Position numbers and translations under genes: made by a program. From the UHGV virus genome UHGV-1550212: 64,000 bases of DNA; one strand, given 5' to 3'. The first letter of the stretch is position 1. Each line of letters starts with the position of its first letter. This DNA comes from a virus. Positions 5,474 through 62,291 of this stretch are shown here, piece after piece. The notes under the pieces are model-generated. The model ran no database searches. It saw nothing but the letters and a program-made list of their open reading frames with translations, and was not told where the DNA came from.

Positions 5474-5505
5474 ATTGCAGAGGTTTAGTATATTTGACTC
5501 TATAT

Positions 5506-5513
5506 TATTTATA
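5506..5513 (-). promoter_or_regulatory. T4-type late-promoter-like box (TATAAATA on minus strand)
   Basis: plus strand reads tatttata; embedded in a ~40-nt block shared with the region upstream of gene 19686..20558. Confidence 0.35.
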
Positions 5514-12988: not shown

Positions 12989-13030
12989 TGTAACAGTGCA
13001 TTTAAGTGTTTTAACTGTTTTATGTATAAA

Positions 13031-13038
13031 TTGTACAA
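13031..13038 (-). promoter_or_regulatory. TTGTACAA promoter-associated motif upstream of nrdJ
   Basis: about 45 nt upstream of ATG 12988, followed by TTTATACAT. Confidence 0.4.
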
Positions 13039-13058
13039 CAATGGGCAAAATTTTGCAT

Positions 13059-13752: not shown

Positions 13753-13941
13753 TGTAGTAGAGGTTAAAATATATTAATATATAATAATTATACTACAAAG
13801 TTGTCAGATTTGCACCAGAATGTATAACAAGTTTGCATAAAAGTTTTACATAAAATGCAAACAAAACAAGCAGACTGCAATTGCAGCCTGCTTGCGCCAA
13901 AACAGAAAAAGATGATAACTTACTAACCCAAAAACCTAACT

Positions 13942-20558: not shown

Positions 20559-20653
20559 TGTAGTAGAGGTTTGTTAATTTATTATTTATAGATATATAAT
20601 ACTACGACAATGCAAATTTTGCACTGTCGTAGCATAAAAGTTTACACATTTTT

Positions 20654-27963: not shown

Positions 27964-28021
27964 TTAGCAAGTTTCCAAACTTAACGTACTTGTCGTTCCC
28001 CGGCTTGGGTGGCGCAGGTTG

Positions 28022-29737
28022 TCAAATCCAGCCGTAGTCGCTGTGGATAGCGAAGGTGAGATAAGCCAACTCGGGATACATACCCGTCTCCGCGAGAGCG
28101 TAATCCGACTCAATCAGCAACTTAGGTGCTGCTGTACCCTCAGCGGTTAATTCCACACTTGATGCAAGGTCATATGGCATGAATACACATCCCTGGTTGA
28201 CATTCTCTACGTCAACGCCGTCAGCAGTCTTGTTCGTACGAAGAACGAGAACAGTGTTATCGTTCAGCGGCTGCTTAGGATTGCAATAGATTTTAATGCC
28301 AGCCAAGTCACCTGCATAATACAGGTTCTTGTTGTCCTGTACCAGCGTATTGTCAAGAGCTGCAACAAAGTTCTTCTGAGCCTTAATTGCAACCAAGGCA
28401 ATCGTATTGACCACAGCAGCATCACCAGCACCGAAACGCGACAGGTTGCCAATGATTGTCGAAGCAGCCAGGATACGAGTTGCGATACGAGCCTGACGGG
28501 TAATCTGGTTCTCAGCCGAGCTGTTCGATTCAGCGTTAGGAACCATGCCGAACTCAGCCGTGCGGTCTACACCCATCTTGTCAACGAATGCAGGAGCCTG
28601 GAATTCCGAGAATGCCTTGGCAGTCGAACCAGCGTAGCCAATGTACAAGTTCAGGTTGTAGCCCTGAGCAGCCAACAGCTGAGCATGTGTCGTAACACCA
28701 AGTGCACGCATGCGCTTCAGACCATTGTCGTTGATTGACTGCGTGATTTCATTCTGCATTGCATTCTTGATGATTGCAACTGCATCCAAACCGCGAGCAC
28801 GGAGGTCCTTAACCTGGCGACGAGTCAGAGCACCCCAAGTCTGGTACGTCTTAACTTCGATAGCCTTTGAGAAGGTGCGGAGCTCCAGCATGTTCGGGTT
28901 GCCAGCCTCAGCCTCAGAACGAGACATTGGATTGCCGTCAAGGTCATCCATTGCAGCGAAGCCGTGGATGTGTTCGTCACCAGCCGAAACCAGGTCGAAC
29001 ATAACCTCAGTCATGCCAGTCAGCATGTCAGTTACAGCACCTGTAGCGTCAACCGAGTAGATTTTCGATGCAGCCATTGCAACATCAGCCAACGACTTGT
29101 CAGGAGCAACAGTCATTGCGCCACCAGCGCCAACGGTATATACGCCTTCATTGCGAACTACGAGGTAGCCTGCAACACGCGATACCTGTACGAACGTTAC
29201 CTTGGCAGCAAGCTCACCAGCAGCTGAACCGCCGATGTACAGAACTTGACCCTTCTTGAGGCCATGAACCATTGTCTGCGAAGCAACATTGTACAACTCC
29301 TTCCACTTGATGAGGAAGTAGCGAGGACCCTTGGCTGCGTTCAACTTGCCACCACCATACACGTAGTCTACATAGTCCAGCTGAACCAGCGGGCTGTATA
29401 CAGGAATGGCCGGGAGCAGGTCGAACAGAATCGTGTTGGCTGCGATGTTCATGTTCAGAGCCAGAACATTGGCAGCTACATCGATTGAACCACGCTTACG
29501 CGACGGGTCATGGAACTGTGCTTGCGTACCTGGGTCAGCAGGGAAAGCGACCGGACCTACGCCATTGAGATTCTGCGAATACGTCGACTCAAACGACTCG
29601 TTCATATACTGAACGTTCTGAGCGATTGATGCGAGCAGATACTTCTTAGCGGGCGAAAGCTTGGAGTCAAACGACTCATCAAGAACAGGGCCCCACTTTT
29701 TCAGCAATGCATCAATCTGTGTACGTTTTGCGTTCAT
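28022..29737 (-). CDS. major capsid protein (T4 gp23-like)
   Basis: N-terminus MNAKRTQIDALLKKWGPVLDE parallels the gp23 N-terminal pattern; 571 aa; markedly GC-rich C-ending codon usage; followed by a strong terminator. Confidence 0.7.
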   Translation of the reverse strand: MNAKRTQIDALLKKWGPVLDESFDSKLSPAKKYLLASIAQNVQYMNESFESTYSQNLNGVGPVAFPADPGTQAQFHDPSRKRGSIDVAANVLALNMNIAANTILFDLLPAIPVYSPLVQLDYVDYVYGGGKLNAAKGPRYFLIKWKELYNVASQTMVHGLKKGQVLYIGGSAAGELAAKVTFVQVSRVAGYLVVRNEGVYTVGAGGAMTVAPDKSLADVAMAASKIYSVDATGAVTDMLTGMTEVMFDLVSAGDEHIHGFAAMDDLDGNPMSRSEAEAGNPNMLELRTFSKAIEVKTYQTWGALTRRQVKDLRARGLDAVAIIKNAMQNEITQSINDNGLKRMRALGVTTHAQLLAAQGYNLNLYIGYAGSTAKAFSEFQAPAFVDKMGVDRTAEFGMVPNAESNSSAENQITRQARIATRILAASTIIGNLSRFGAGDAAVVNTIALVAIKAQKNFVAALDNTLVQDNKNLYYAGDLAGIKIYCNPKQPLNDNTVLVLRTNKTADGVDVENVNQGCVFMPYDLASSVELTAEGTAAPKLLIESDYALAETGMYPELAYLTFAIHSDYGWI

Positions 29738-29825
29738 GATTGAATTTGTTTGTTATTGAAAGTGAAACATATATTTCTGTATAATATGTATAGAACTACT
29801 GACATTGATTGAATTGTGAAAATGG

Positions 29826-31217
29826 TCATTTTTCAATCTTTTTGAGCAATGCATGACCACAATCATAGACTTCGACGAAGCCTGACGCAATCATTTGTTG
29901 CCTATCAAACCCATTGTCAAGTAGATGTTCCCATGTCTTTGTATTGTGCCAATGCAATTGAATTGATGATTTATCTGTACTAAGCTGCGGATTTTTTGAA
30001 AAGTCTGCACAGTCAATTTTGTCACCGTTAAGATGCTTACGAATGCATTCAATGACAGTGTCGTGGTCATCCCAGTCCCATATTGTTATGCATACATAGC
30101 CATGTTGTAATGCAATTTGTGTCTTGTCAAAATGACTATCATGTCTCTTTGGCCTATTACGCTTTGTGCGCTTAGTAATATATGCATATGAGTATGTTGA
30201 GTTATGCGAAAATGTTGGATTCACTTCAATCAACAATTTGCAATGTTCATTTTCATAATGCAAGTCATATGAAAAGCCAAGTAGCTTAACATCGTCATAA
30301 CTGCAATCAATGTTAAGCTCTTGTTGCAACTTATCATGCCAAAATTGATTTGGCTTAGATATTATGTTGCCTTGACTGTTTATGCAGTTAGAAGTCATAC
30401 ATGACCATGGCACGCCATAACGCTCAATGTTTGTTTTGTTTGCACTTGCTTGAATTTTTGACAATGGGCCCCATGGATGACCATACTTTGCACGCTTGAC
30501 ATCTGCACCACGTTTAGCAACTTCACGATAATCGCCATAACGCTCTTTTCTTGTAGCAAGCATTTTTGCAATATTGCCCGCGCCACGAGAGCCATATCTA
30601 AGCTCTTTAGTCTTTTGAGCTTTGGCGTAATCACCACAAAATGCATTGCCATATCGAGCAATTTTTGTTGCTTTCATTTTTTCAATGTTGCCTGCACCAG
30701 CATTGCCATAACGTTCAAGTTTTGTTTGCTTGGACAATTCAACATTGCCAAATTTGTTGCCATAACGCACTAATTTTGTTTCTTGTGAACGTTGACGTAT
30801 TTCTTGCACTTGTGCACAGTATTCTACGCCATAGCGTTTTAACATTGTTATTCGTTGATTATATGCACGTTTAATAGGTGCATGCGATGTTCGTTTTGGC
30901 CCATATTTAACAAACTCAGTAGATGCAAGTAATTCATCACGCTCACGTTCAAGTTCTGCAATTCGTTGTTGTATATGGACATCATACACAGGCTGCTCAG
31001 AAATGTCATCAATAGCTGTCGTTTCTAATTTAGCAAGTTTGCGTTTAAGAGCTTTTGTTGTTTGCGTGCAGCTCATTTTTATCAATGCATGTGCATGTCT
31101 GCCACAGTCAAGTACAATGTTAGGCTCATTTGCAAGGCGTTCATCACGTTTACATTCTGCAGCATGTATTGCATCAATAAGTTGTCGTCTCTTTACATTA
31201 TATTCGTCTTGTGTCAT
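29826..31217 (-). CDS. RYG-repeat / Vsr-DUF559-like nuclease (putative homing endonuclease)
   Basis: tandem repeats (KRYG, VRYG, ERYG, ARYG, LRYG, ERYG, AKYG, ERYG); C-terminal FSYDLHY...LLIEVNPTFSHNS...GYVCITIWDWDD...FVEVYDCGH. Confidence 0.55.
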   Translation of the reverse strand: MTQDEYNVKRRQLIDAIHAAECKRDERLANEPNIVLDCGRHAHALIKMSCTQTTKALKRKLAKLETTAIDDISEQPVYDVHIQQRIAELERERDELLASTEFVKYGPKRTSHAPIKRAYNQRITMLKRYGVEYCAQVQEIRQRSQETKLVRYGNKFGNVELSKQTKLERYGNAGAGNIEKMKATKIARYGNAFCGDYAKAQKTKELRYGSRGAGNIAKMLATRKERYGDYREVAKRGADVKRAKYGHPWGPLSKIQASANKTNIERYGVPWSCMTSNCINSQGNIISKPNQFWHDKLQQELNIDCSYDDVKLLGFSYDLHYENEHCKLLIEVNPTFSHNSTYSYAYITKRTKRNRPKRHDSHFDKTQIALQHGYVCITIWDWDDHDTVIECIRKHLNGDKIDCADFSKNPQLSTDKSSIQLHWHNTKTWEHLLDNGFDRQQMIASGFVEVYDCGHALLKKIEK

Positions 31218-35704: not shown

Positions 35705-38700
35705 TTAGCCACGAATCAAGTCAACCAAGCGTTGCTGTTCAGGAGTCAATGAAGACTTTCCGCTGCCATCAATGTTTTCGTTAACGAAACCGACTGGCTG
35801 CTTAGTCGAATATGACTTGATTGCAGCCCAGTTACGTGAACGATAGAATGCTGCGACATCTGACTCATTTACGAAAGTGCGAACTGCTGCCTGAGTAGCA
35901 ATCAATGACTTCTGTTCAGGAGTCAAGCTTTCATAAATGTACTTGTATGCTGTTGGCATATGCTTCAGATACAATGGTGTATGGTCAATTGGCTGCAGGT
36001 TCTCATCCAAGACTGCTACACCAGCAGCATCATAGCGAGTTGCAAGCTGCTTTGTTTGACGACGCAATGCAGCAATTTCATGCTTGATGCTTGTCAAGCA
36101 TTCATCAGTTGCTTGTGCGCCAAGATATGTGCGAAGCATATCAGACAGCATCTTCTGATTTGCATCGGTCAAATCACCTGCAACTTCAATGCCAGTCAGC
36201 TGGCCATCTTTGCTGATGACTACAGAAATTGTAGAACCGTCGCGTTCAACTGTGCGGAAGTCAAAGTCATCGTATGACTTATCCTTAAGGACAGCTTCAC
36301 GAATATTGTCATCTACGCCTTCATTGACCATGCTCATGCATTCCTCAACATCTACGTCAAGTCCAAGCTCTTCTGCAGTTTCAGCAATCTTTTCTGCAAG
36401 CTGAGCTTTATTCTCAACTTTGTCAAGGTCTGCTGCATCTGATACAGCATCGACAAGTTCATCTGCCTGTGCACGAGTAATCGTTGAAGCATCAACAAGG
36501 CCATCAATGATTTGCTCTACATCTGCAGGTGTCGGCTTGTTGTCTTCTGCTGCTTCATTGATAAACTTGGCAGTCTTTGGCTTGTAGCTAAGCTTGCCCT
36601 CATTGACCATCTCATCCTGCAATTGTGCAGCGATGTATGCAATTAGCAATGACTTGTTGGCTTCAAGTTCATCGACTGCTTCAGCAGACTTTTGAGCTTT
36701 GATGAGTTCATCGTAAGCTGCTGCAACTTTGTCATCCATCGTAGACTTGTCAGGGTCAATGTTTTTGATGCATGTCTTGACAATATCATCCTGATAGAAC
36801 TTGTCAATGATTGATTTGTCTGTGTCAGAGTATGTTGCATATAACTTGTCTGCGACAATTGATTCATTGACAATCTTGCCTGGCTCAGATGCAGGAACAA
36901 GAGTCCACTTACCATCAACTTCTGCAACAATGCCTGAAGTCGATTCGCCATAAGTGACTGTTAGACGAGTGCCTGCTTCATTGTTGTCAATTGTGTTGAC
37001 GACTGCTTCGAATTCATTACCATCAGCGTCATAGATTTTGATGCTGTCACCGACAGCAGCTTCATCTACTGGTGCTTCGAAGAACTCTTTGACAAAGTTC
37101 TGAACATCAACGGGCAGACTGTCATATGGCTGTGATGCATAGTACTCTGAGTCAGCATCAAGGTAATTCTTTGAAAGCAGCCAAGCTTTTCGAGTAGCAA
37201 CATCTGCAGCATTCCAAGCATCGACTGACTCATCGCAGTCATCGACAAGTGCAAGATACTCATGGTCTTTCTTGTCATCAAAACGAAGAGTAATCTTTTG
37301 TTCGGGCTTGCCAGCAGGCCAAACTTCGACTTCAATTTCTGTAGTGCCTGCAACATTTTTGACTGTGCCTACAACAATCTTGTCGCCTTTGTTGATGCCA
37401 TTAGACATGTCGTATGGTGCTTCAATAGATTCATCTGTCGACTGAGCTCGAATTGCTGCAGCAATAGCATTACGAGATTCATTGTCGAACATCTCCCATG
37501 TAGCATTCGCAGCATCTTCTACACCAATCTTGTCTTTGCCAACCTGCTCAATCAACTGATTGCGGTCAGCTACTGAAGCATTGTACCACCAGTCTGCAGC
37601 AGTGTCAGATGCTTCATTGACAAATGCATTGAGCAATGCAGTCTGAACGTTATCAGGCAACTTGTCAAAGTCAACAAGCTCTACGTCATCTGCAATATTT
37701 GCTTGCTTTGCTGTTGCTTTACGGCCATCTGCATCAGACTTATTCCAGTCATCAATGAATGCCTGTTCAGCAGCAGATTCATCAAGCGCTTTGACAGTTT
37801 CATATCGACCGTCATACAGCATGTACTTATCGCCTTCTTTGATGGCTACAGACTCCTTGCCATTGTACTTGAATGACACTTTGTCACCATTGAAGCCGGT
37901 CAATTCAGCTGTGATTTTATCGCCATTCTTGTCATACACTTCAACTGTCTGCTCTTCATCAATGTTCAAGTGCTTCTTGAGTGCATCTACAAGTTCTTTG
38001 CCAAGAGCGTCTTCATTGTCATGGGCTTGCTGGAAGCAATCTTCATCTGACTTGTCAGGCTGAACAGCTTTCAATGCTGTTGCCCGATTAAGCATTGACA
38101 TCGTGCCCCAGATTGACATGAAGCTTTTGCCCTCATTGTCTTGTGCTTCGGCTTCGTCAATTGCATCAATGTCTTTCTCAAGCATTGCATGATGAGCAAT
38201 GTCGATGCCAGACCATTTCGTCTTTGCATTATATGGCAAACCAATATGCTTCGACAAAATTGACTGACGTTGGTCATCTGTGAATGAATCCCAAGCTTCG
38301 CCAAGTGTTGCATGCTTTGCTTCATCAGCAGCAAATTCTGTTTCAATCTTAAGTTTGTGGTCCTTGTCAATCAGTTGCCACTTGGCATTTGGACGATAGA
38401 ACTCAGACAATGACAGCTTGTCAAGAATGACTTTGCGTTCGTCATCTGACAATTCGTCCCACTTGTTGTCAGCAGATTCATCGATGTTGACGAGTTCTTT
38501 CTCAATGAGATTCTTGTCAAGCATTGCATCAATGATTGGCTGCTGGGCTTCTGCTGGAATGTCTTTGAACGACTTAATTGCAATGACAGCGTCTTTGTCA
38601 TCAACTTTAGCAGCTTCAACAATTTCTGTCTTCACTTCATCAGTCAAAGCGCCCCAAGCAGCATCGAGATAATCAAAGTTGAGAGCTTCATCACATTCAA

Positions 38701-39820
38701 CAATGCCATACTGCTTTGCAATGTCATTGTGCTTGTCAAGATTGCTGTTGAGTTCAGCTTCAATTGCTGCTTTGATGTCATCAATTGACTTATCTTCAAC
38801 TTCAAGCTCAAGAGCTTTTGCAAGTTCAGTCAATGCTGCATCATCAAGCTTGCTAATGTCATAAGGCTTAGCATCTTCATTTGTGAAGTCAATGCCAAGC
38901 AAAGACATTGCTTGCTTCTTGTTTTCTTCTGAGAGTGCATCGAATGCAGTTGCAAGACCGACATCGGTGTAGTCGCACCCAACTTCGTCAAGTAATGCTT
39001 CGACTTTCTGGATGTTTTCTACGCCAACTTCGTTAGCATCAGCATTGTTGTATGCCTCAACAAAACGTGATTGGTTTGTCATGGTAGTGAAATCTTCTAT
39101 TGATTCGTTTATGAGTTGCTGTTTGAGTGCATCCAATGATGCTGAGCCAATCAATGCATCAGGGAATAGCTTCTGCAACATACCTGTACGTGCAAGCTCA
39201 ATCAATTGGAGCATCAATGAGTTTGGCGAGTCTTCGTCATCTACAGATTCACAAATGAGAGTGTCTTTTGATTCATTAACTGAACCGACAAGATTGAACT
39301 CTGCATTCGAAAAGCCTGGCTGTGCAACCAAATCAAATGTCACGATTTTGAGAAGCTGAACTCTGCCAGTAGTTGGATTGACTACGCCAAGGGCGCGACT
39401 TGAAATGAACAATGGCGAACCTGCTGTAACAATTGCCCATGCAATGCGACCTGCAGGCGTATCAAGAATTGTAATGTAGCCTTCAAAACGTCGTTTTTCA
39501 GGATTCCATTCAATACTGTCCAATCTGTGGCTTACGTTTCCATAACGTACAGTACGTCGCTTAACATGTTCAAGTTCGCCAAGAAGTCGCTTTGCTTTAA
39601 TTGCAGGTTGCAATGCCTGTACTTGAGCAAAGTAATTCTCAAAGTCATACGTGCGCCCATTTTCGTTTTTCTGGTCCATGTATGCATACACGCCAAAAAG
39701 ACGACCAAGTGCGCCGCTTGGCACATGAGAATCTTCTGCTTCAACTACAAACTGACAATCTGCGCGGCTTTCAAGCATAAGTGAGGCTTCCCTGCCTTTG
39801 TACTTATATGACTTTGCCAT
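35705..39820 (-). CDS. prohead protease-like N-terminal domain fused to ~1200-aa acidic scaffold-like region
   Basis: N-terminal ~190 aa with GELEHVKRR and LFISSRALGVV (gp21-like His/Ser context); remainder highly acidic with nine aliphatic-N-E motifs; ATG at 39820. Confidence 0.5.
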   Translation of the reverse strand: MAKSYKYKGREASLMLESRADCQFVVEAEDSHVPSGALGRLFGVYAYMDQKNENGRTYDFENYFAQVQALQPAIKAKRLLGELEHVKRRTVRYGNVSHRLDSIEWNPEKRRFEGYITILDTPAGRIAWAIVTAGSPLFISSRALGVVNPTTGRVQLLKIVTFDLVAQPGFSNAEFNLVGSVNESKDTLICESVDDEDSPNSLMLQLIELARTGMLQKLFPDALIGSASLDALKQQLINESIEDFTTMTNQSRFVEAYNNADANEVGVENIQKVEALLDEVGCDYTDVGLATAFDALSEENKKQAMSLLGIDFTNEDAKPYDISKLDDAALTELAKALELEVEDKSIDDIKAAIEAELNSNLDKHNDIAKQYGIVECDEALNFDYLDAAWGALTDEVKTEIVEAAKVDDKDAVIAIKSFKDIPAEAQQPIIDAMLDKNLIEKELVNIDESADNKWDELSDDERKVILDKLSLSEFYRPNAKWQLIDKDHKLKIETEFAADEAKHATLGEAWDSFTDDQRQSILSKHIGLPYNAKTKWSGIDIAHHAMLEKDIDAIDEAEAQDNEGKSFMSIWGTMSMLNRATALKAVQPDKSDEDCFQQAHDNEDALGKELVDALKKHLNIDEEQTVEVYDKNGDKITAELTGFNGDKVSFKYNGKESVAIKEGDKYMLYDGRYETVKALDESAAEQAFIDDWNKSDADGRKATAKQANIADDVELVDFDKLPDNVQTALLNAFVNEASDTAADWWYNASVADRNQLIEQVGKDKIGVEDAANATWEMFDNESRNAIAAAIRAQSTDESIEAPYDMSNGINKGDKIVVGTVKNVAGTTEIEVEVWPAGKPEQKITLRFDDKKDHEYLALVDDCDESVDAWNAADVATRKAWLLSKNYLDADSEYYASQPYDSLPVDVQNFVKEFFEAPVDEAAVGDSIKIYDADGNEFEAVVNTIDNNEAGTRLTVTYGESTSGIVAEVDGKWTLVPASEPGKIVNESIVADKLYATYSDTDKSIIDKFYQDDIVKTCIKNIDPDKSTMDDKVAAAYDELIKAQKSAEAVDELEANKSLLIAYIAAQLQDEMVNEGKLSYKPKTAKFINEAAEDNKPTPADVEQIIDGLVDASTITRAQADELVDAVSDAADLDKVENKAQLAEKIAETAEELGLDVDVEECMSMVNEGVDDNIREAVLKDKSYDDFDFRTVERDGSTISVVISKDGQLTGIEVAGDLTDANQKMLSDMLRTYLGAQATDECLTSIKHEIAALRRQTKQLATRYDAAGVAVLDENLQPIDHTPLYLKHMPTAYKYIYESLTPEQKSLIATQAAVRTFVNESDVAAFYRSRNWAAIKSYSTKQPVGFVNENIDGSGKSSLTPEQQRLVDLIRG

Positions 39821-39953
39821 ATTTGAATTGTGTTTGAAAGTTTGCAAATTTTTGTTGTTATTGATTATATATGCAAGGCAGACTTGTGTGTTGAAAAATT
39901 GCAAAATTTCAGTTATGTGTACATAACAAAACCATCCAAATCAATTCAATTAT

Positions 39954-40622
39954 ATGTCAACAAACAATCATGGCAAGCTCAGATTGCTTGAGCTCAAAGA
40001 AGCACAGCCATATGACACGCTCAAAATTGGCATTGACGTATCAGTAGATGCTACTGGCATGTGCATGATATTTGGCAAAACTGTTGCGCTGTTCAAATTT
40101 ACGCCGCACTTGCCACCAGAAGATGACAGTTCAGATGATGTGAATTTTGTGCAGTTCAACAAAATCTATCTGCAAACATCATCTTCTGCAAGAGAACGCT
40201 CAAAAATGCATACTCGACACACACTTGCAAACAAGATTGTTGACGCGATTGATATGTTCATGCAGGAAATTTGGCCGAATAGCCCAGCAAACATTCAAAT
40301 TGTTACAGAAGGGTCTGCATATGGCTATGCCGCACACAACTCTAACAGCTTGGTAGAACTTGCTGAATTTAGAAGCGTGATTTTAGAAAGAGTCTATCAT
40401 CGTTGGCCACTCGGCACGCATCTAAGTCTTGACGTTATTGCGCCAAAATCATTGAAGAAACATGCAACCGGTGACGGCAAAGCAGACAAACTAAAGATGA
40501 TTGAAGCTGCAATTGCTAAGTTGACACACATTCATTGGGCAGGCAAAATTGACGATGAATGCGATGCATTGCATCTTTGTCTGTATGAGCCATTAAGCAA
40601 TCCTGAACCACGACTTTGGTGA
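39954..40622 (+). CDS. RuvC-like Holliday junction resolvase
   Basis: KIGIDVSVDATG (catalytic Asp region), IVTEGSAYG, KSLKKHATGDGKADKLKM and DECDALHLCLY parallel RuvC motifs. Confidence 0.55.
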   Translation: MSTNNHGKLRLLELKEAQPYDTLKIGIDVSVDATGMCMIFGKTVALFKFTPHLPPEDDSSDDVNFVQFNKIYLQTSSSARERSKMHTRHTLANKIVDAIDMFMQEIWPNSPANIQIVTEGSAYGYAAHNSNSLVELAEFRSVILERVYHRWPLGTHLSLDVIAPKSLKKHATGDGKADKLKMIEAAIAKLTHIHWAGKIDDECDALHLCLYEPLSNPEPRLW

Positions 40623-42981: not shown

Positions 42982-44220
42982 CTATACACGTCTTGTCAAT
43001 TTGACATGACCGCAGTCATCTGCAAGCAGTTTAACATGACCGCAGTCATCTGCAAGCAGTTTAACATGACCGCAGTCATAAACTTTGACGAAGCCTGCAT
43101 CAATCATAGTTTGCTCATCATGATTGCAGTCAAGCACATGTGTATGAGTTTTCATATTGTACCAATGCAAGCCGATGTAAAAGTCAGTCTTGTGATATGC
43201 GTCAGTATATAATCGTGGGTCATCTATAGACAAATCAAGTTCGACGCAGTCAGCAGTCTGCAGTTGTTCTGTGTCAGTTAGCAATGATTTGACAAGCTTG
43301 ACTACAGCATCAAATGACATCCAATCAAATACAGTGATGCATCTATAGCCATGTTGCATAGCTGTGCAACATTTGTCAAAATGCGTAGTTGATGCAATTG
43401 GCTTGTTGACTGTAGAACGACCAGTAGCAAAATCAAATGCAAATGTGCTGTTATGCGTAAATGACGGATTGACATCAATTAGCAAATTGTCATATCGCAA
43501 ATCAAATGCGTAGCAATCTACGTCATGTTCATATTCAAAATCAACACCAGTATGCTCAAGTAGCATATCATGTAACAAGACGTTTGGCTTTGTAATGATT
43601 TTGCCATTTGCAAGTCTGCACTTCTGAGTTAAACAATGCCAAGGCACGCCATATCGTTCAAGTGTAGTGTTGCTAATCTTCTGCAAATTGCCAAAACCGC
43701 TGCCATAGCGTAATTGCTTTGTGACTGTTTGCTGTGCAACATTACCATTAGCATGACCAAACTTGTTGATGTTTGTTTGCTTGCGCTTAGCATTTGCAGT
43801 TGCAATATCAACAGATTCAAGTGACTCAAGAAATTTTGACATGTCGCCAAGCCCATTGCCATATAGTTGACGTTTAGTGTCAACAACTTTTGTCATGTTC
43901 CAGTGCTTGTAGCCATATCGAGCTTCTTTTGTCGCAAATGCTTTGTCATAGTTGCCAAAGCCTGCATGACCATATCGTTCAACTTTTGTTGCAGCAATTT
44001 TGTCTGAGACTTCTTTAAGCTGATGTTTGTATTCAACGCCAAACTTGCGCAAATTTGATATGCGAATGTTGAACACTCGTTTGACTTTTGTATGCGTAGA
44101 GCCTTTGTCAAGCTTTGCATATGGAATTTGTGCAAGTGCAGCGTCTCTTTCATCTTCAAGCTCTCTTATTCGAGCTTCAAGTGCATCACCAGCCAAAACT
44201 TCTATGCGTATAGTCTGCAT
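42982..44220 (-). CDS. RYG-repeat / Vsr-DUF559-like nuclease with C-terminal tandem decapeptide repeat
   Basis: N-terminal ALEARIRELEDERD coiled coil, RYG repeats, LLIDVNPSFTHNS...GYRCITVFDW...FVKVYDCGH; C-terminus DCGHVKLLAD repeated three times. Confidence 0.55.
   Translation of the reverse strand: MQTIRIEVLAGDALEARIRELEDERDAALAQIPYAKLDKGSTHTKVKRVFNIRISNLRKFGVEYKHQLKEVSDKIAATKVERYGHAGFGNYDKAFATKEARYGYKHWNMTKVVDTKRQLYGNGLGDMSKFLESLESVDIATANAKRKQTNINKFGHANGNVAQQTVTKQLRYGSGFGNLQKISNTTLERYGVPWHCLTQKCRLANGKIITKPNVLLHDMLLEHTGVDFEYEHDVDCYAFDLRYDNLLIDVNPSFTHNSTFAFDFATGRSTVNKPIASTTHFDKCCTAMQHGYRCITVFDWMSFDAVVKLVKSLLTDTEQLQTADCVELDLSIDDPRLYTDAYHKTDFYIGLHWYNMKTHTHVLDCNHDEQTMIDAGFVKVYDCGHVKLLADDCGHVKLLADDCGHVKLTRRV
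43001..43080 (-). repeat. 30-bp tandem direct repeat (about 2.7 copies) at the 3' end of the nuclease gene
   Basis: ttaacatgaccgcagtcatctgcaagcagt repeated. Confidence 0.85.
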
Positions 44221-50089: not shown

Positions 50090-50153
50090 AGCAGTGAGCA
50101 TTAAAATTCCTATATAAATTGTACAACGCTTTGTGCACATTTGCAATCATAAA

Positions 50154-50181
50154 AAAGCTCAGCCAATTACGGCTGAGCTTT
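50154..50181 (-). terminator. terminator hairpin
   Basis: 11-bp stem aaagctcagcc / ggctgagcttt with A-run/T-run flanks. Confidence 0.5.
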
Positions 50182-50205
50182 CATTGAGATGCGTCTTGTC
50201 TGCCA

Positions 50206-51495
50206 CTATTCTTTTGGCAGAAGTTCAGCAATGCGTGACTGCAATTGCTCTTTCTGCTTCAAGTAGCTATCAAGAATTTGCTGATGAGCTGCATAGCCCT
50301 CTGATGTCGGGTCCATGCTCTGCATTGTTACTTGAACTGCAGCAATGTCTGATTCAACATTATTGAGCACTGTTTGATATGCATCAACTTGTGCAGATGC
50401 ACGAATTGCAGCTTTCATTGCAGTATCATAATGTTCACGCCACATTGACTTGATGCATTCGATTTCTGGTGTGCTTACAGAAATTGACTGCAATGCTGCA
50501 ATGAGTGCAACAATGCCGCCATACACTGTAATGATGCCAGACTGAGTATCAAGCATATTGAAGTGATTGCCATCAACTGCATATACAATGATAGGCGCAG
50601 ATTGCAGCTTAACTGAATTGTCGAGAACTGCAAGCTTTGTGAACTGCTGTGCTACTGCAATGACTGCATTGCAAATTGCCTCTGCAGTCTCAAATTCGCC
50701 AGCAACTTGCATGCTAACTTGATTGAGTTGCATATAAGTCTTGACTTTCTCAGCGAATTCAAGTGCAGTCATAACTTGTGAATCAAGCTCAACTGCATCT
50801 TGGCCAACAATGCGAACATGGCCGACAATTGTGTCAGCAAAGAATGCTTCAGTCTTTGGACAATACTGAACAAGTGATATTGCATTCATCAATGCGATAG
50901 ATTCTGCTGATGGCTCAGATGTTGTAGCATACAGCAAATTGCCATCAGACACAGTGAACCACTTGCCAACTACAGGCAGACCCATGATGTCACCTGCAAT
51001 AATTGCAAGCACATGCTGGCAATCACCTGTAGCAATGATGTGTTCGGGATTTGCTGCGTAGTAGATGTCTTTTGCCTGCTTAATGAGCGACTTCACCTCA
51101 GGGTACATGTCATAATTGTCAAGCACGCCATCAACTGCAATTGCTCGAATGATTGGCTCATCAGTTGATGCAACATCTACTGCATCTTCGATTGCTGACG
51201 CAGCCCTTTGCATATTTGCAGAGCCATCACTCATCAAATCCTCCATGACAAGTGATGCTTTGAAGCCAAAGCCATCTGCACCAATTGCTGTTTTCTGTGA
51301 TTTTGCAAATGCGCGTACAGCAGCATCTTTGCTATTTGCGGCGCTTTCCAAAATCAATGCAGCTTTTCGAAGAGTCAGACCAGACTTTTTGATTTGTGCA
51401 AGTGACTCATTGACAAAGTTTGCACCGCCAAAAGTCAATGCTTTGATGCCTTTGATACCTTGAACAAATGCATCAACGTTTACAGTATGTTTCAT
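50206..51495 (-). CDS. hypothetical head-associated protein (429 aa) with N-terminal propeptide-like segment
   Basis: N-terminus ...TFGGANFVNE-S carries the recurrent FVNE motif at residues 27-30. Confidence 0.45.
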   Translation of the reverse strand: MKHTVNVDAFVQGIKGIKALTFGGANFVNESLAQIKKSGLTLRKAALILESAANSKDAAVRAFAKSQKTAIGADGFGFKASLVMEDLMSDGSANMQRAASAIEDAVDVASTDEPIIRAIAVDGVLDNYDMYPEVKSLIKQAKDIYYAANPEHIIATGDCQHVLAIIAGDIMGLPVVGKWFTVSDGNLLYATTSEPSAESIALMNAISLVQYCPKTEAFFADTIVGHVRIVGQDAVELDSQVMTALEFAEKVKTYMQLNQVSMQVAGEFETAEAICNAVIAVAQQFTKLAVLDNSVKLQSAPIIVYAVDGNHFNMLDTQSGIITVYGGIVALIAALQSISVSTPEIECIKSMWREHYDTAMKAAIRASAQVDAYQTVLNNVESDIAAVQVTMQSMDPTSEGYAAHQQILDSYLKQKEQLQSRIAELLPKE

Positions 51496-51502
51496 AGTCT
51501 AC

Positions 51503-52993
51503 TTATGCCTTTTTAGATTTGCGCTTTGCGGCAACTACGACTTCTGCTACGATAGCTTCTACAGTAGCTTCAGTTACAACAGACTTGTCTGCAACTTTTA
51601 CAAGAGCTGCATGCAACTTGTAGTTGCCGACTTTGCTGAAAGTGCACTTGAATTCTGTTGTTGCGTTGTATTCTGCAGGTACTGCAAAACCACTGTCAGG
51701 ACCCCATACACCAGTGTCTTCAAATGTCCAAGACTGTCCTTGTGAATCTGTTGCAGCGAATGTCACATGACCATCTTCAGGTGCTTCTACAATTTCATAT
51801 TGCAGCTGAACGCCATCAACACCTGCTTTACCAACGACTTCAGTTGCAAGTGTTGCATTGATTGCAACTTCTGTTGTAGGCTGAATACTTGCAGGGACAT
51901 CTACAGAAATCTTGTATTCTGACACTTCAGGCTGAACTGGCTCAGCAACAACTACTGTAGACTCTGCTTCAACAACTACACTGTCATCAGCAACCTTGGC
52001 AAGAACTGCATGCAACTTGTATGCGCCTGCCTTGCTAAAGATTACAGTGAACTTTGTAGTTGCATTGTATTCTGCTGGAATGTCAAAGCCTACTGCAGGA
52101 CCCCAAGTTCCATTATCGACGAATGTGTATTCATTGCCAGTTGTGTCAGTAGCCTTGAATGTCACATGACCATCTTCAGGTGCTACGTCCACGCCATAAC
52201 GGAACTGAACTTTGTCAACGCCGACGTCGCCAACAGTCTTCGTTTTGAATGTTGCATCAAGCTCAACTTCAGTGTTTTCGATTATTGTTTCAGGTGCAGA
52301 CATTTCGAACTCGTACTCAGACACTGTTTGTGCAGCTTGTTCAAGTTTGATGTTCTTTGTCTTGTTTGAACTCATAGTCTCACGACCAGCATGGCTAATG
52401 TAGCCCTCTTTAGACACTTCCCATACAATTTCTTCGCCTGACAAAACAGTCAACGAATTGCGAACTTCGCCATTCATCTTGATAACTGCATCTGCAGGTT
52501 CTACATTAATTGTCAGTGTAGCTTTGCTAAGCTTAACAAGCTCCACTACTTGAATGACATCATGATTTGTGAGCGTGATTGTGCCCTCCTGAGATTCATA
52601 GCCCTCTTTCGACACTTCCCACTTAATTGGAATGCCTGCGGGCACATTCTCAAGCATCTTTGTAGCCTCACCATTGATTTCTACATGAGCATCTTCAGGC
52701 ACTGGCTGAATTGTGATGCTGAACTTGTCTTTACCAGGTTCAGGGTCTGGTCCGGGTCCTGGGTCATCACCAGTAATTGCAGGGATGATAGTGTTTTCGA
52801 TGACTTTCTGAGCTTCTGCAGTTGTGCCATAGAATTTGAGAGTTTTCTTGGCTTCTTCTACAGACATCTTCTCAAGATTATCTGCAAGATATGTCAGACC
52901 AGTGACTGCAGCAATTTTCTGCCGCATTTCTGGGCTAATGACTACACCAGTAGATTTGACTACTGGAGCAGCTTGTTTTTGTTTCTTTGCCAT
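51503..52993 (-). CDS. surface/decoration-type protein with PEGA-like and Ig-like domain duplications
   Basis: two ~60-aa PEGA-like repeats (...NGE...WEVSKEGY) and two ~100-aa repeats (APEDGHVTF.ATD...WGP..GF..PAEYNATT.F...SK.G.YKLHA); GPGPDPEPG linker; Lys-rich C-terminus; ATG at 52993. Confidence 0.5.
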   Translation of the reverse strand: MAKKQKQAAPVVKSTGVVISPEMRQKIAAVTGLTYLADNLEKMSVEEAKKTLKFYGTTAEAQKVIENTIIPAITGDDPGPGPDPEPGKDKFSITIQPVPEDAHVEINGEATKMLENVPAGIPIKWEVSKEGYESQEGTITLTNHDVIQVVELVKLSKATLTINVEPADAVIKMNGEVRNSLTVLSGEEIVWEVSKEGYISHAGRETMSSNKTKNIKLEQAAQTVSEYEFEMSAPETIIENTEVELDATFKTKTVGDVGVDKVQFRYGVDVAPEDGHVTFKATDTTGNEYTFVDNGTWGPAVGFDIPAEYNATTKFTVIFSKAGAYKLHAVLAKVADDSVVVEAESTVVVAEPVQPEVSEYKISVDVPASIQPTTEVAINATLATEVVGKAGVDGVQLQYEIVEAPEDGHVTFAATDSQGQSWTFEDTGVWGPDSGFAVPAEYNATTEFKCTFSKVGNYKLHAALVKVADKSVVTEATVEAIVAEVVVAAKRKSKKA

Positions 52994-53137
52994 AAGATAT
53001 TGTGAATTTGGTTGTTTATTCTTAACAAAATATGTACATACAGATGCAACAGATGATATGTCAGATACACAAAGCTGCATAAAATGACCAGACTTGCAAA
53101 TAAATTTAAGCAAGTCTGGTCATCAGTTTTGATTGCA

Positions 53138-54430
53138 CTACAACAATGACGGCACTCGTTGAGTTTCAAGTGGGTCGCTGACATTGATGCCTGTGTATGC
53201 AACAAGTCGTTGTATTGGGCCAAGTACGAGTTTTTCGAACATGAGTCGTTTGTTCATTGGCGGCACATCTGGCATATACTTCGGTGTCGGCATTTCGCCT
53301 GGTGCAAAGCCAAATGCATCGCAATATTGACGAGAGCCAATTGGTATATTTGACAAATCTGACTTTGCTCTGTCAACAAAGTAGTAGAACACTCGACCGC
53401 CTTCAATCAATGGGTATCGTGTTTCCAATCCATGTGCTTTGACAAGACAGTTATGCCAACAACATGCTCTATATTGAGGCAGTACACCTTTTGCTAACTG
53501 CCATTCACCATCATAGCTTAGCACATAGTCATGATACTTGTTTGCATTGACATATGCACAAAGTTTCTCCAAGTCTTGCTCGGCTTCAAAGCGTTTCCAT
53601 AATTTCTGTATGAGCTTTGGATATGTCGCAGAAGTTAATTCGCCTCTGAACATTTTCTTGAATGCATAATCAAGCATTTGTCTAACAAGCATTGACGAGC
53701 CTGTTTGAATAAGTTCGATGCCTTTGCCTTGAATGTGCTCAGTAGGGTCTTCGAATACTCGACCATCTACATATATTTGAGCCTTTAAGTACTTTTTCTT
53801 TTGGGCAAATAATGCAGTGTCAGAAATCGTTTCGAGGTCAAATAGCAAAATTGAATTGCCGTGGCGTTTTGCGAGGTCTGCTGCATATGCACCATTGAAT
53901 AACTCTTCCATACGATATTTGAATATCGCAAGAATCAAGTCATACCAATTTTTGCCTATGTAGCCAATTGATTTGACAGTTGGCTCAAAGTGAATGTACA
54001 AAGAGTCTGTATCAATGTACAACACTTTGTCTTCATAAGGCTCTTGCTTTGGCGACACAGACAAATCAAAATTGCCCTTCAATTGTGGGTCATTACGCAG
54101 CTTTTCATGCAATTCATAATCACACCACCACTTATTGTTGAGATAGTCATTTGCTACTCGTTCACCAAAGTGAATGAAGTTGCGGCCTTCAGCAGTAATT
54201 GATTCTGCAACTGCCATATTAAAGAAGTGATAGAAACGATTGCTTGTAGCGCCATATATTGAGTTTCGACAACATTTTGCTGAGACTTGCAGTCCTGCAT
54301 GCTTTAGTGATTCTTGCATTGCAAAATCTCTCAATTCAAATAGACGTTCAGTAGACAACTGGCTTAAATCACCAGTCAAATCTACTCCATCTATTTCAAT
54401 TTTTGACATATCTATCTGAGCTTCTGCCAT
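53138..54430 (-). CDS. family-B DNA polymerase, C-terminal (polymerase motifs B and C) fragment
   Basis: motif B KCCRNSIYGATS (KxxxNSxYG), motif C YIDTDSLYI (YxDTDS). Confidence 0.8.
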   Translation of the reverse strand: MAEAQIDMSKIEIDGVDLTGDLSQLSTERLFELRDFAMQESLKHAGLQVSAKCCRNSIYGATSNRFYHFFNMAVAESITAEGRNFIHFGERVANDYLNNKWWCDYELHEKLRNDPQLKGNFDLSVSPKQEPYEDKVLYIDTDSLYIHFEPTVKSIGYIGKNWYDLILAIFKYRMEELFNGAYAADLAKRHGNSILLFDLETISDTALFAQKKKYLKAQIYVDGRVFEDPTEHIQGKGIELIQTGSSMLVRQMLDYAFKKMFRGELTSATYPKLIQKLWKRFEAEQDLEKLCAYVNANKYHDYVLSYDGEWQLAKGVLPQYRACCWHNCLVKAHGLETRYPLIEGGRVFYYFVDRAKSDLSNIPIGSRQYCDAFGFAPGEMPTPKYMPDVPPMNKRLMFEKLVLGPIQRLVAYTGINVSDPLETQRVPSLL

Positions 54431-54571: not shown

Positions 54572-55399
54572 TTAGAATGGCAGGTCGCCATCATCACCTA
54601 CAGCATCAAAATCAGCAGCAATGTCATATACCAACGTCATTGCGATTCGCAAATCACGTTTCTTAGATTTCAGACGCATGATGTCATGACCTGAATTGTT
54701 TGTGATGACTGAGCATTCAAACTCTTCATTGCCGTCGATGAATGACAGCATTGATTTGTGAATTGTGATTGGCGACAAATCTGACGGATATGACGAATCA
54801 ATCACATATTCAAAGTTGTTGTTCTTGGCAATTAGGCCTCGTTCAGTTGTGCGAATCTCAATGCCGGGCAGTTCCTTGTCACCTGTATTCAATGAGCCAT
54901 ACGATGACATGATGCCAAAGTGATTTGACGTCAAATCGAGCTTTCTCAGATTTGTTGTGCTATCAAACAGCATTGACATATCATTGTCAGACAGCTCAAA
55001 GTAGCCAAGTGATGGCATTGAACAAACCTGATTGATTTTGAGCTGATTGTTTGAGATTACAATGAGCTCTGCAATTGTATCTGTACCAATTTGTTTGACA
55101 TAGATTTCAATCATTGCATATGAGCCAAATGCAGCAAGTACTCGATTGTTGAATTGCGTGCCATTGTAAATAAGCGCCTTGACTGTGACATCTTTGAGTG
55201 TAGACTCATAATGTTCGCAAATGTCAAGCACATTAAGTGTCTGCGACTTTACAAAGCTACTATTGCCAGCATCAGTTCTGATTCGCTGGTCATTGAGTGA
55301 AAAGCTAAGCTTGCCATCGCATTTTAATGATGATGCAAACAATGCTCGCAGCATATCAATGTTTGCATTGCGTAACGTAATTTTGTTCAGATTTTCCAT
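54572..55399 (-). CDS. hypothetical protein with SSB-like acidic C-terminal tip
   Basis: C-terminus DFDAVGDDGDLPF resembles the bacterial SSB DDDIPF tip; no clear OB-fold recognised. Confidence 0.35.
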   Translation of the reverse strand: MENLNKITLRNANIDMLRALFASSLKCDGKLSFSLNDQRIRTDAGNSSFVKSQTLNVLDICEHYESTLKDVTVKALIYNGTQFNNRVLAAFGSYAMIEIYVKQIGTDTIAELIVISNNQLKINQVCSMPSLGYFELSDNDMSMLFDSTTNLRKLDLTSNHFGIMSSYGSLNTGDKELPGIEIRTTERGLIAKNNNFEYVIDSSYPSDLSPITIHKSMLSFIDGNEEFECSVITNNSGHDIMRLKSKKRDLRIAMTLVYDIAADFDAVGDDGDLPF

Positions 55400-55467: not shown

Positions 55468-55842
55468 TCATCGATTGTCGCCTGACCCATGCAATACACC
55501 TCGCAATTTTCGAGACTGCAGTTTCTGAATGTTAAGCTGACAAATGTCAGTTAAGCTGTAGCCCAAATCATGTGCAAGAGTTGCAGCATACCACATGACA
55601 TCGCTGAGCTCTTTTGCGATTTCCTTGCGAATGTCTTCATTATCAAAATCACCATTCTTGTCTCGAATGACTTTTTTGACTTTGTCTGCAACTTCGCCTG
55701 CTTCACCCGTTAAGCCAAGTGTTGGATAGATAATTGCAGCTGATTTAGGATATACTGCGCTATCAAGCGCAGCAGTCTGATATTCATCAATAGTTGAAAT
55801 CCAAGTGTGGTCGATTACGCCGTGTTCATCTCGTTTAAGCAT
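55468..55842 (-). CDS. MazG-like nucleoside triphosphate pyrophosphohydrolase
   Basis: LTGEAGEVADKVKK and ELSDVMWYAATLAHDLG all-alpha NTP-PPase motifs. Confidence 0.6.
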   Translation of the reverse strand: MLKRDEHGVIDHTWISTIDEYQTAALDSAVYPKSAAIIYPTLGLTGEAGEVADKVKKVIRDKNGDFDNEDIRKEIAKELSDVMWYAATLAHDLGYSLTDICQLNIQKLQSRKLRGVLHGSGDNR

Positions 55843-55843
55843 A

Positions 55844-56335
55844 TCATTTACGTTTTTGTTTGACTCTTAATCGTTTTTGCATAAATGCTCTTGTAGCTTC
55901 ACCAAAAGCCATCTCGTCTCGTTCGCCACCACAAAGCTTTGCAAGCTTATTGAATGTGTCTTGGTCAATCATTGTGTACGTTGAGTTGTTGACCACATGC
56001 AATGCAAACTGAATCAGCGGTGCGCCTGGCTGCAAGCAGAATGGCTCTTTACCTGCATTGTACACTGCAAGATGAATCTCGCCATGATAGTCTGAATCTA
56101 CAAACTCACTTGTTTTGATGATAAGATGATTTCGTGAAATGCCCGACTTATTGTAGGCAATCAATGCATGACCGGCAGGCACAAGTGCTTTGATGCCAGA
56201 TGGAATTGCAATGCCCTCACCAGGTTGCAGCATTGTTTGCACAAAATCATTGGGTATGCAAAAGTCCCATGCGCCAGATTCTGCTGTTGACTTAAAAGGA
56301 CTTTCTACATTTCTGCATTTTGCAAAGAATAACAT
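55844..56335 (-). CDS. dUTPase-like protein
   Basis: SGAWDF, YNKSGISRNH, FVDSDYHGEIHLAVYN parallel dUTPase motifs 1-3. Confidence 0.5.
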   Translation of the reverse strand: MLFFAKCRNVESPFKSTAESGAWDFCIPNDFVQTMLQPGEGIAIPSGIKALVPAGHALIAYNKSGISRNHLIIKTSEFVDSDYHGEIHLAVYNAGKEPFCLQPGAPLIQFALHVVNNSTYTMIDQDTFNKLAKLCGGERDEMAFGEATRAFMQKRLRVKQKRK

Positions 56336-56723: not shown

Positions 56724-58229
56724 TTACAATTTGATTGCGCCTCTACGAGCAAGCTCTTCTTCAATCAATCGAACATGATTGTTAGCATACCAAAATTGCA
56801 ATTTTTTGTGATAATTGCGAACGTTGCCAAGCTGTTCTTGAGTTTCTTTATACATTGAAGGCTCTCTGTTGTCATACAGACAATTGTTGACTGACACAAA
56901 GTAATTTGGGTCTGCTTTGTAATGCTCAATTTCATCAGGATTTGTTAAACGTCTAATAAAGTTGTCTGGTGAAATATTCGCCGAGCGCATACTTGACGGA
57001 TACAATGAGTTTGCGTCAACACAGACAACCATACGAGCCCAATGGTTAAATGGTTGCTTAACAAAGCCGCCCTCAAATGAATGTACTACATTCTCTGGGC
57101 CACCTTGAGCACATACAACTTTGCCGCCATATTTGTTGTATAAGTATGTCATCATGACGCCCTCAGATTGCTTAACTGGTCCTTGGCAGTGATTCATGTC
57201 AATATTTGTCATATTTGACAATGACATCACATTTGATATCAAGTCAGTTTTTGCAGCAATCATTGCATTGACCATAGTATCGACAGCATTGTATGCAATG
57301 AATGTGCATGGATGATACAAATACAGCTCTTTAAGTGTGCAATCATAGGGCAACTTACCTACGCCGAACATACGATGTGCAATGTAGTCAAGTCGCAATG
57401 ATTCCTTTTGCCACACTGAATAGTCGTATGTGTCCATGAGCTGCATGTAGTCATCAATGTACTTGTGATATGGCATACCATTGCCCCAGACAGTTCTGCC
57501 AACTGGAGATGCCAATGCTAAATCAATATTGTGCATTGCGCATCGATTTTTGACATAGATGTTATCGAAGTCATTGATGTTCCAGCCTGTCAATGCAGGA
57601 ATGTTTTTGAAGAGCTTAGTCACCCAAAAATGCAACAATTCATGCTCATTTGCATGTTGAAAAATTTTGACAGTTGGATGTTCTTTCAAATACGCAGCAA
57701 AGCAATGTTGACCCATATACTCTTGAATGATGCCATTGACAAACTCAAATGCATCATCCAATGTTGGGTTTTGTTTGCCGCAGCTTTTGCGCAAATCATC
57801 ATCATTCAACAAGTCAACAGTAGTCTGAATGACACAATTGCATTGTTCATCGCATGTACTTATTGCATTAATGGGCATTTCAGCTTTGTCAGGCTTTGGA
57901 AAGCCATTGCCAATTTCAGTCTCAATATCGTAAAAGTACAACTTTGGTCTACGATAAGCAAACAATTCAGCTTTGTCAGCTTCAGGCAATTCAAATAAGA
58001 ATTGCAGCAAGTCAAATTGATTGAATCGTTTTGCTGTGACTCGAGTCACTGGCAATTTACGCCAATCTTGAATATCTGCATATTGAGGCTCTACGTGGTC
58101 TGATATTTGCCACACTGGAAATTGATATGGCTGTTCACAGACTGGGTATGTTTTGATGTCAATGCCACCTTGCTCATTAACATATGAGACTTCAATGCCA
58201 TGTGACAAATATGCTACGTCAACAATCAT
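56724..58229 (-). CDS. family-B DNA polymerase, N-terminal (3'-5' exonuclease + motif A) fragment
   Basis: Exo I YFYDIETEIG, Exo II LTGWNINDFDNIY, polymerase motif A VDANSLYPSSM; ends with stop after motif A. Confidence 0.8.
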   Translation of the reverse strand: MIVDVAYLSHGIEVSYVNEQGGIDIKTYPVCEQPYQFPVWQISDHVEPQYADIQDWRKLPVTRVTAKRFNQFDLLQFLFELPEADKAELFAYRRPKLYFYDIETEIGNGFPKPDKAEMPINAISTCDEQCNCVIQTTVDLLNDDDLRKSCGKQNPTLDDAFEFVNGIIQEYMGQHCFAAYLKEHPTVKIFQHANEHELLHFWVTKLFKNIPALTGWNINDFDNIYVKNRCAMHNIDLALASPVGRTVWGNGMPYHKYIDDYMQLMDTYDYSVWQKESLRLDYIAHRMFGVGKLPYDCTLKELYLYHPCTFIAYNAVDTMVNAMIAAKTDLISNVMSLSNMTNIDMNHCQGPVKQSEGVMMTYLYNKYGGKVVCAQGGPENVVHSFEGGFVKQPFNHWARMVVCVDANSLYPSSMRSANISPDNFIRRLTNPDEIEHYKADPNYFVSVNNCLYDNREPSMYKETQEQLGNVRNYHKKLQFWYANNHVRLIEEELARRGAIKL

Positions 58230-61931: not shown

Positions 61932-62168
61932 TTATTCGAAATCCGTGTCATCTGCATTTTCATTAGGGTCATAGATAAGCCATACAAATGCTGCACAGCC
62001 AAGTATGAATAAGCCTCCGCCAATGATTGTCGTAAAAACCGAACCAATCCAATGCTTCATAATATCACCGAGCGGATTCAATGTTTCATAGCCAATCATA
62101 AATGCGACAAATACAACTATTATTGCTGCTATTGCTTTGTTTGTGGTATTTCGTTTTATTGTTGCCAT
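61932..62168 (-). CDS. small membrane protein (78 aa, two predicted TM helices)
   Basis: ATG at 62168 preceded by conserved leader aacctctactaca; hydrophobic segments AIAAIIVVFVAFMIGY and VFTTIIGGGLFILGCAAFVWLI. Confidence 0.4.
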   Translation of the reverse strand: MATIKRNTTNKAIAAIIVVFVAFMIGYETLNPLGDIMKHWIGSVFTTIIGGGLFILGCAAFVWLIYDPNENADDTDFE

Positions 62169-62291
62169 TGTAGTAGAGGTTTGTTGTGTTCTGTATATTA
62201 TGTTCGAATATATGAGGACATATATTATATATAGATATATTACAACACGCAAATCATTTTTGCACACTTTTATAAACCAAATTTCACAAAA

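Follow-up and report, generated by a model that had tools for sequence, protein, structure and literature searches.

The gene at positions 51503..52993 on the minus strand of the window, by which we mean the whole 64,000-nucleotide stretch of UHGV virus genome UHGV-1550212 that was analysed, encodes a modular 496-aa protein that, on balance, is probably an accessory fibre or decoration protein of the virion surface with an adhesive role. Its domain anatomy, its homologies, the conserved locus in which it lies, the swapping of its modules and its accessory distribution among related phages are all observed directly. The protein is of a familiar phage kind, that of the Ig-like surface proteins; the new elements are an undescribed putative anchor domain, an Ig-like domain absent from Pfam and a locus that behaves as a cassette.

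Domain architecture

A sequence-only reading of this DNA had pictured a capsid-decoration or adhesin candidate composed of two PEGA-like and two Ig-like repeats, a Gly/Pro/Asp/Glu linker and a Lys-rich C-terminus. This architecture is real and far beyond chance. In an AlphaFold2 model obtained with 18 family sequences (mean pLDDT 83.4, pTM 0.40), residues 1-14 are disordered, residues 20-75 form a four-helix domain and residues 77-88 a disordered linker; four beta-sandwiches follow, at aa 90-151, 157-216, 226-350 and 359-482, and a disordered tail occupies aa 486-496. Low pTM combined with high local confidence fits a beads-on-a-string arrangement. All four beta domains are confidently predicted to be Ig-like or PEGA-like sandwiches, and the model shows neither a coiled coil nor an intertwined trimeric fold. 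The protein has no signal peptide, transmembrane or hydrophobic segment, which implies that modules of extracellular type would reach the outside only on the virion or via lysis.

The coding sequence starts with the ATG at 52993 and ends with the stop codon at 51503-51505, an assignment backed by homologues and by the model. Longer versions of the open reading frame (TTG at 53113, ATG at 53080) were rejected: they overlap a terminator hairpin and its U-tract, and the extension is missing in other family members. We thus take ATG 52993 to be the right start.

The PEGA-like and Ig-like repeats

The first pair of sandwiches lies at aa 89-152 (52538..52729, minus strand; defined by Pfam PF25641 / PF08308, repeat alignment and AlphaFold2) and aa 156-218 (52340..52528, minus strand; PF25641). 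As expected of the PEGA-like duplication noticed initially, the two stretches are 44% identical over 55 aa, with an alignment score of 102 versus 24.9 +/- 4.4 in 300 shuffles (z=17). A domain HMM search of Pfam returned PF25641, Head_fiber_dimeric, at 74.7 bits against a cut-off of 30 (5e-21), over aa 92-152 and 157-218. PEGA (PF08308) passed marginally over aa 92-152 (22.1 bits, gathering threshold 20.8), PF25641 being the better model.

The sole solved relative is the dimeric crAss001 head fibre gp29 (PDB 7qof_j, E=8e-9). PF25641 covers gp29 residues 56-119 only, and in BLASTP the target aligns solely to gp29 residues 55-116, at 36-42% identity (36% for the second sandwich, to gp29 residues 56-116). 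Cryo-EM has shown that gp29 residues 1-58 bind a capsid hexon pocket; residues 58-118 make up a distal Ig-like sandwich that was merely docked into the map (PMC10172136). Since the match is restricted to residues 55-116, the homology is with the outward-facing module of gp29 and not with its anchor, and would speak for a phage fibre module rather than for a capsid binder. Arrays of PF25641 are also found in large fibre-like proteins adjoining portal and tail genes of other uncultured phages, as at a crAss-like locus with a BACON-domain neighbour (L008) and in the 1406-aa and 742-aa proteins of another locus (L009).

The second pair comprises repeats at aa 223-352 (51938..52327, minus strand; delineated by repeat alignment and AlphaFold2) and aa 356-485 (51539..51928, minus strand; single-domain model pLDDT 93.9). 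They are 57% identical over 130 aa (score 373 versus 33.6 +/- 6.0, z=57) and 60% identical to each other in DNA, and both copies contain the APEDGHVTF, WGP, PAEYNATT and YKLHA motifs that had been proposed as their signature. The repetition first noticed is therefore genuine, but its unit, as given by the alignment of aa 223-352 with aa 356-485, is ~130 aa long and not ~100 aa. These repeats are confidently modelled as Ig-like sandwiches; they match no usual Pfam Ig-like family (Big_2, I-set, FN3).

Relatives of the larger repeats are numerous. A profile of nine repeat copies retrieved 809 cluster representatives at E<=1e-3 (378 at E<=1e-10) from 1.84 billion proteins; the proteins bearing the repeat often have multiple copies and reach 6,594 aa. 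When 50 of the 809 representatives were scanned with Pfam, SLH domains were found in 12 and the T9SS Por_Secre_tail sorting domain in 7, and the remaining ones included Flg_new (Listeria-Bacteroides repeats), Big_2, beta-helix, cohesin/dockerin and CBM domains. Company of this kind is typical of bacterial cell-surface and glycan-binding contexts. A separate profile search of genome contigs, made from a four-sequence repeat alignment, identified repeat copies with 41-43% identity in genomes (MAGs) of Clostridium sp. and Tepidanaerobacter sp.

The N-terminal domain, linker and basic tail

The protein begins with a Lys-rich disordered extension, MAKKQKQAAPVVKS (aa 1-14; 52952..52993, minus strand; pLDDT <50), which in the alignment is confined to the target's sub-lineage, other family members beginning at the helical domain. 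That domain (aa 17-76; 52766..52945, minus strand) defines the family and carries the motif I-x3-TGLTYLADNLEK. AlphaFold2 places its helices at residues 21-31, 36-40, 45-55 and 59-74, and the family alignment shows I27, T31, G32, L33, L36, A37, E41, L52 and Y55 to be invariant. We infer that it serves as a virion anchor or oligomerisation module. It has no match in Pfam, PHROG, the PDB or isolate phages: the PDB profile search and tblastn against phages (E<=10) yielded only noise, at E ~0.5 in the former. With 5.8 billion proteins as the target set, a profile search gave zero matches and missed known family members too, probably on account of a word-index limit.

Next comes an acidic, flexible Gly/Pro/Asp/Glu linker (aa 77-88; 52730..52765, minus strand; pI 4.05). 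It had been recognised from its composition, and the corresponding sequence, GDDPGPGPDPEPGK at aa 75-88, is indeed present and predicted to be disordered (pLDDT <50 for aa 77-88). The same holds for the Lys-rich C-terminus, a disordered Ala/Lys/Arg-rich tail (aa 486-496; 51506..51538, minus strand) that includes AAKRKSKKA. Such a tail is kept in 16/19 family members regardless of the module that precedes it, and it closes a protein that apart from it is strongly acidic (net charge about -29). Its partner might be the particle, an anionic ligand or some assembly factor. Comparison with a 96%-identical variant (P0001) revealed differences at 18 of 397 residues in the sandwich domains versus none of 88 in the N-domain and linker. 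Substitutions among near-identical variants thus avoid the N-domain.

A variable gene in a fixed genomic slot

The family defined by the N-domain consists of about 19 cluster representatives and five metagenomic loci, with at least one member from a human gut metagenome assembly. Its proteins range from 227 to 740 aa. Both ends, the N-domain and the basic tail, are kept and the middle varies: the cargo encoded 3' of the linker includes zero to two PF25641 domains, one to three Ig-like repeats, beta-helix-like and other unrecognised domains. P0010 and P0014 are among several members whose distal module is beta-helix-like and reminiscent of tailspikes.

At every locus with enough flanking DNA, the genes follow in the same order: a 275-aa ORF, the C-terminal half of a split family-B DNA polymerase (polB), the family gene and a gene for a 429-aa protein. 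The slot lacks the target in Chryseobacterium phage MA9V-2 and in Sphingomonas phage PAU, where the polB C-half is directly followed by the 429-aa gene or its positional counterpart, and in Tenacibaculum phage pT24, where a ligase gene occupies it; the target gene must therefore be dispensable. Dispensability is a property of decoration proteins. Across relatives, the flanking genes diverge uniformly and can be aligned over their full length (35-51% identity); of the target, nothing outside the N-domain can still be aligned. As judged from these comparisons, the gene is an accessory insert at a fixed hotspot.

The most direct view of the exchange comes from loci L013 and L014, whose family proteins (227 aa and 493 aa) have nearly the same ends and differ by an internal cassette situated between two copies of another domain. 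Closely related phages can thus carry either the 227-aa version (L013) or the 493-aa version (L014/L015). The shorter one looks like the product of recombination between the two internal ~130-aa domain copies. This domain (ASYN...WTWEQSK...) has no Pfam match.

The phage and its genome

The genome is that of a T4-like myophage. Its genes include those for the major capsid protein (28022-29737), sheath, portal, a prohead protease that is a large fusion, a gp2-like DNA end protector and a gp55-like late sigma factor. The major capsid protein shares 33-37% identity with its counterparts in Chryseobacterium phages MA9V-1/2, Sphingomonas phage PAU and Tenacibaculum phages PTm1/PTm5/pT24, and is more distantly related to those of Lak megaphages. 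IMG/VR contains one near-identical genome of 175.6 kb. Neither tblastn of the target protein nor megablast of the 15 kb around it found anything among 50,697 phage records; in PTm1, PTm5 and pT24 no homologue of it could be detected, and the PHROG search gave no family for the target or for its 429-aa neighbour. We class this T4-like phage as one of human-gut type.

The polymerase is encoded in two genes on the minus strand, for the N half (56724-58229) and the C half (53138-54430). Between them lie a dUTPase gene (55844-56335), a MazG-like gene (55468-55842) and the 275-aa ORF (54572-55399), which may encode a sliding clamp and has no family match. The split and the gene order are kept in metagenomic relatives, in MA9V-2 (with a TnpB insertion), in PAU and in pT24. 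The 429-aa protein is mostly helical and is a core positional gene product of the PAU/MA9V-like group, with identities of 35% in L001 and 42% in L014 and a marginal counterpart in PAU gp111 (E=0.16); it has no Pfam match and no informative or named homologue.

Several other features of the window deserve mention. A 1,399-aa ORF on the minus strand (35705-39904) has its prohead-protease domain (phrog_207) confined to the first ~350 residues; its relatives are products of 1,393-1,621 aa with faint Peptidase_S77/S80 matches, and it may be a protease-scaffold fusion. Two homing-endonuclease-like ORFs with weak phrog_3339/19446 matches are found on the minus strand, one (29826-31217) directly upstream of the major capsid gene and the other (42982-44220) directly upstream of the portal gene. 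The ribonucleotide reductase large subunit (9767-13048, minus strand) is unusually long at 1,093 aa, and its match extends over aa 45-1092 yet takes up only ~777 profile positions. This points to a large insertion, perhaps an intein or an additional domain. GC content is 0.49 across the major capsid gene (28001-30000) versus about 0.40 in the rest of the window. Finally, the portal and protease genes are 1.3 kb apart, and the gap holds the only sizeable plus-strand ORF (39954-40622, 222 aa) of an otherwise single-strand array.

Transcription unit and expression signals

The target gene is located 3' of the polB C-half and 5' of the 429-aa gene (50206..51495, minus strand), a core gene of the phage group. 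Directly 3' of the polB C-half stop codon is an intrinsic-terminator-like hairpin (about 53079..53124, minus strand; 15-bp perfect stem and U-tract, dG -26.7 kcal/mol, z -6.2), which parts the target from the replication genes. A second terminator-like hairpin, with a 13-bp stem and U6 (50147..50182, minus strand), follows the 429-aa gene. Because such hairpins flank the pair on both sides, the target and the 429-aa gene look like one transcription unit and are likely co-transcribed.

Forty-five nucleotides upstream of the ATG lies a candidate promoter element, a TGTACATA box (53031..53038, minus strand) that is one mismatch away from TATACATA/ATACATA. ATACATA/TATACATA occurs 18 times, versus 9.3 expected, on the coding strand upstream of genes in the window, and is present upstream of target orthologues as well. 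Its copies are intergenic, 25-55 nt before start codons (e.g. 3051, 9703, 13028, 29792, 31243). Since it precedes the capsid gene and replication genes alike, the motif assigns no timing class, and we rejected it as timing evidence in either direction. For the T4 late box TATAAATA, 2 occurrences versus 1.4 expected amount to no enrichment. Boxes of the GTTGTACAAT type precede replication genes; the sequence upstream of the target is no less similar to these than to any feature peculiar to the capsid gene, so that late expression is no more than a possibility.

Shine-Dalgarno sequences are almost absent throughout the window, a scarcity that fits a Bacteroidota-type host. An identical 16-nt leader whose last letters are the start codon, AACCTCTACTACAATG, is present in 3 copies versus 0.03 expected (13750-13765, 20556-20571 and 62166-62181, minus strand), with a related copy near 5473-5513. 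Each of the three copies has a similar promoter-like stretch, TAGTAT...TATA(A/T)ATA, upstream and a small gene downstream, and the whole looks like a repeated promoter and 5'UTR cassette.

Discussion

The features described above can be assembled into a working model. The basic four-helix N-domain (aa 17-76) would dock the protein onto the particle, probably as an oligomer, and the disordered acidic Pro/Gly linker would act as a hinge. From there, the two PF25641/PEGA-like and two Ig-like sandwiches would project outward as a flexible string of ~15-20 nm. Through weak binding of glycans or other polymers, present on the host cell or in the gut around it, they would raise the rate of encounter or adsorption. 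The distal modules would be exchanged by recombination, including with bacterial cell-surface proteins. Presence on the virion, attachment site, oligomeric state and ligand are the parts of this model that we infer. The case for an adhesive protein at the virion surface is made by the conserved foot, the hinge, the exchangeable sandwiches, the missing secretion signal and the accessory distribution, in the genome of a tailed phage. That the gene lies on the margin of the replication module, immediately behind polB, speaks against it.

The initial proposal of a Hoc-like decoration protein stands in part. Architecture, a PF25641 module shared with a capsid fibre, the tailed-phage genome and the lack of a signal peptide agree with a decoration or adhesive function; descent from Hoc and a gp29-type anchor do not hold. 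T4 Hoc gives a BLASTP E of 0.45, and I-set/PKD matches in Pfam are found in Hoc and not in the target. Against viral structure models, the large repeat reaches Hoc-type entries only at E ~0.014 and TM 0.38. The likeness to Hoc is one of organisation: both are dispensable accessory proteins in which a string of Ig-like domains is joined to one non-Ig attachment domain, the gene of each stands alone in a T4-like genome, away from the main structural clusters, and for both a role in weak adhesion has been proposed. In contrast, Hoc has I-set/PKD-type domains and a C-terminal anchor, whereas the conserved non-Ig domain of the target is N-terminal.

The parallel with gp29 (PDB 7qof/8ckb) is closer in one module and looser elsewhere. 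Both PEGA-like sandwiches of the target belong to PF25641, both proteins have an N-terminal foot followed by outward-facing beta-sandwiches, and both phages come from Bacteroidota-rich or gut habitats. However, gp29 has 122 aa and a single sandwich, and its virus is a crass-type podovirus in which an auxiliary capsid protein forms the gp29 binding pocket (PMC10172136). The target, from a T4-like myovirus, has two additional large Ig-like repeats and a basic tail, and its four-helix N-domain shows no similarity to the capsid-binding residues 1-58 of gp29 in BLASTP. Orthology with Hoc or gp29, implying binding at hexamer centres through a homologous anchor, is accordingly very improbable. It can draw on the PF25641 domain common to target and gp29, on the general architectural resemblance, and on nothing else; the Hoc comparison, gp29 residues 1-58, which find no counterpart in the target, and the lack of a PHROG match all count against it. 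At the sequence level, descent from Hoc and whole-protein orthology with gp29 are contradicted.

In a wider context, Fraser et al. in 2006 reportedly described a class of Ig-like domains displayed on structural proteins of tailed phages. The target shares with such proteins the appended Ig-like sandwiches, the modular exchange and the relatives in bacterial surface proteins; it differs in that its repeats belong to a family that is not in Pfam and counts at least 809 cluster representatives. Tenacibaculum phages PTm1/PTm5 are of the same lineage (major capsid protein 33.6% identical) and have head-fibre-like appendages, but they lack a target homologue. We know of no gene assigned to these head fibres. 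Their hair-like capsid fibres were seen by EM, according to the passages of PMC13282480 and PMC8643167 that cite Kawato 2020.

As to where on the particle the protein might sit, we tentatively consider the capsid the more likely site. This choice is guided by the Hoc-like string of independent domains without a trimeric fibre fold, by the dispensable single gene outside the tail clusters, by the module shared with a proven head fibre and by the capsid hairs attributed to PTm1/PTm5 in the sources just named. A capsid location is plausible rather than proven, since the gp29 anchor is unmatched, PF25641 arrays lie near portal and tail genes, and the protein is not Hoc-like by descent. An accessory whisker or side fibre attached to tail, neck or baseplate, whose N-domain would be docked on a protein of the tail or neck and whose distal sandwiches would assist primary host recognition, is a serious rival, though we rate it as rather unlikely. 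It would account for the PF25641 arrays close to portal/tail genes in L008 and L009, for the tailspike-reminiscent beta-helix-like module of several members (P0010, P0014) and for the whole-model Foldseek matches, which are mostly annotated as tail, baseplate or structural; these are generic tandem Ig arrays with TM <0.3 among viral structures and cannot separate head from tail. Yet the gene lies outside the sheath/baseplate cluster, and the predicted structure lacks a coiled coil and an intertwined trimeric fold, independent Ig-like strings being more typical of monomeric decorations. Moreover, the gene is missing in otherwise syntenic relatives, hence the target is not an essential receptor-binding protein.

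The genomic setting invites yet another explanation, namely that the protein does not belong to the virion. It could act inside the cell, in keeping with the replication/transcription region, or be a soluble product, released on lysis, that coats cells or debris and serves, for example, as a superinfection block or decoy. The gene does lie between polB and the gp55-like sigma factor gene, in a hairpin-bounded two-gene unit with the 429-aa core gene, and its promoter class is ambiguous. Nevertheless, every recognisable module is of the extracellular adhesion type, module swapping and accessory distribution are typical for surface proteins under host-range selection, and replication proteins normally do without interchangeable Ig-like arrays. 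We regard this explanation, in its intracellular and soluble forms together, as improbable, and keep to an adhesive protein on the virion surface.

One may speculate further that the site flanked by the polB C-half and the 429-aa gene is a dedicated display-cassette locus of PAU-related gut myophages. The four-helix anchor at one end and the basic C-terminal tail at the other would enclose freely swapped modules of extracellular type, acquired from S-layer and T9SS surface proteins of bacteria; both conserved ends would contact the particle or a common ligand, and the product would be the type of gene behind the capsid hairs of this phage group. Taken jointly, these claims are more doubtful than not. 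If true, they would define a way of attachment that is new among phage decoration proteins.

The leads that follow from all this are modest and leave current understanding in place. The locus illustrates clearly how modules are swapped in nature while the genomic slot stays the same, and the large repeats reveal a widespread ~130-aa Ig-like domain without a Pfam entry, common to phages and bacterial SLH/T9SS surface proteins. The N-domain, having no known relative, could be a basis for predicting the surface proteins of PAU/PTm1-like and related uncultured myophages. Accessory Ig-like fibres affect both the host search of phages and their persistence in habitats rich in mucus, the gut among them.
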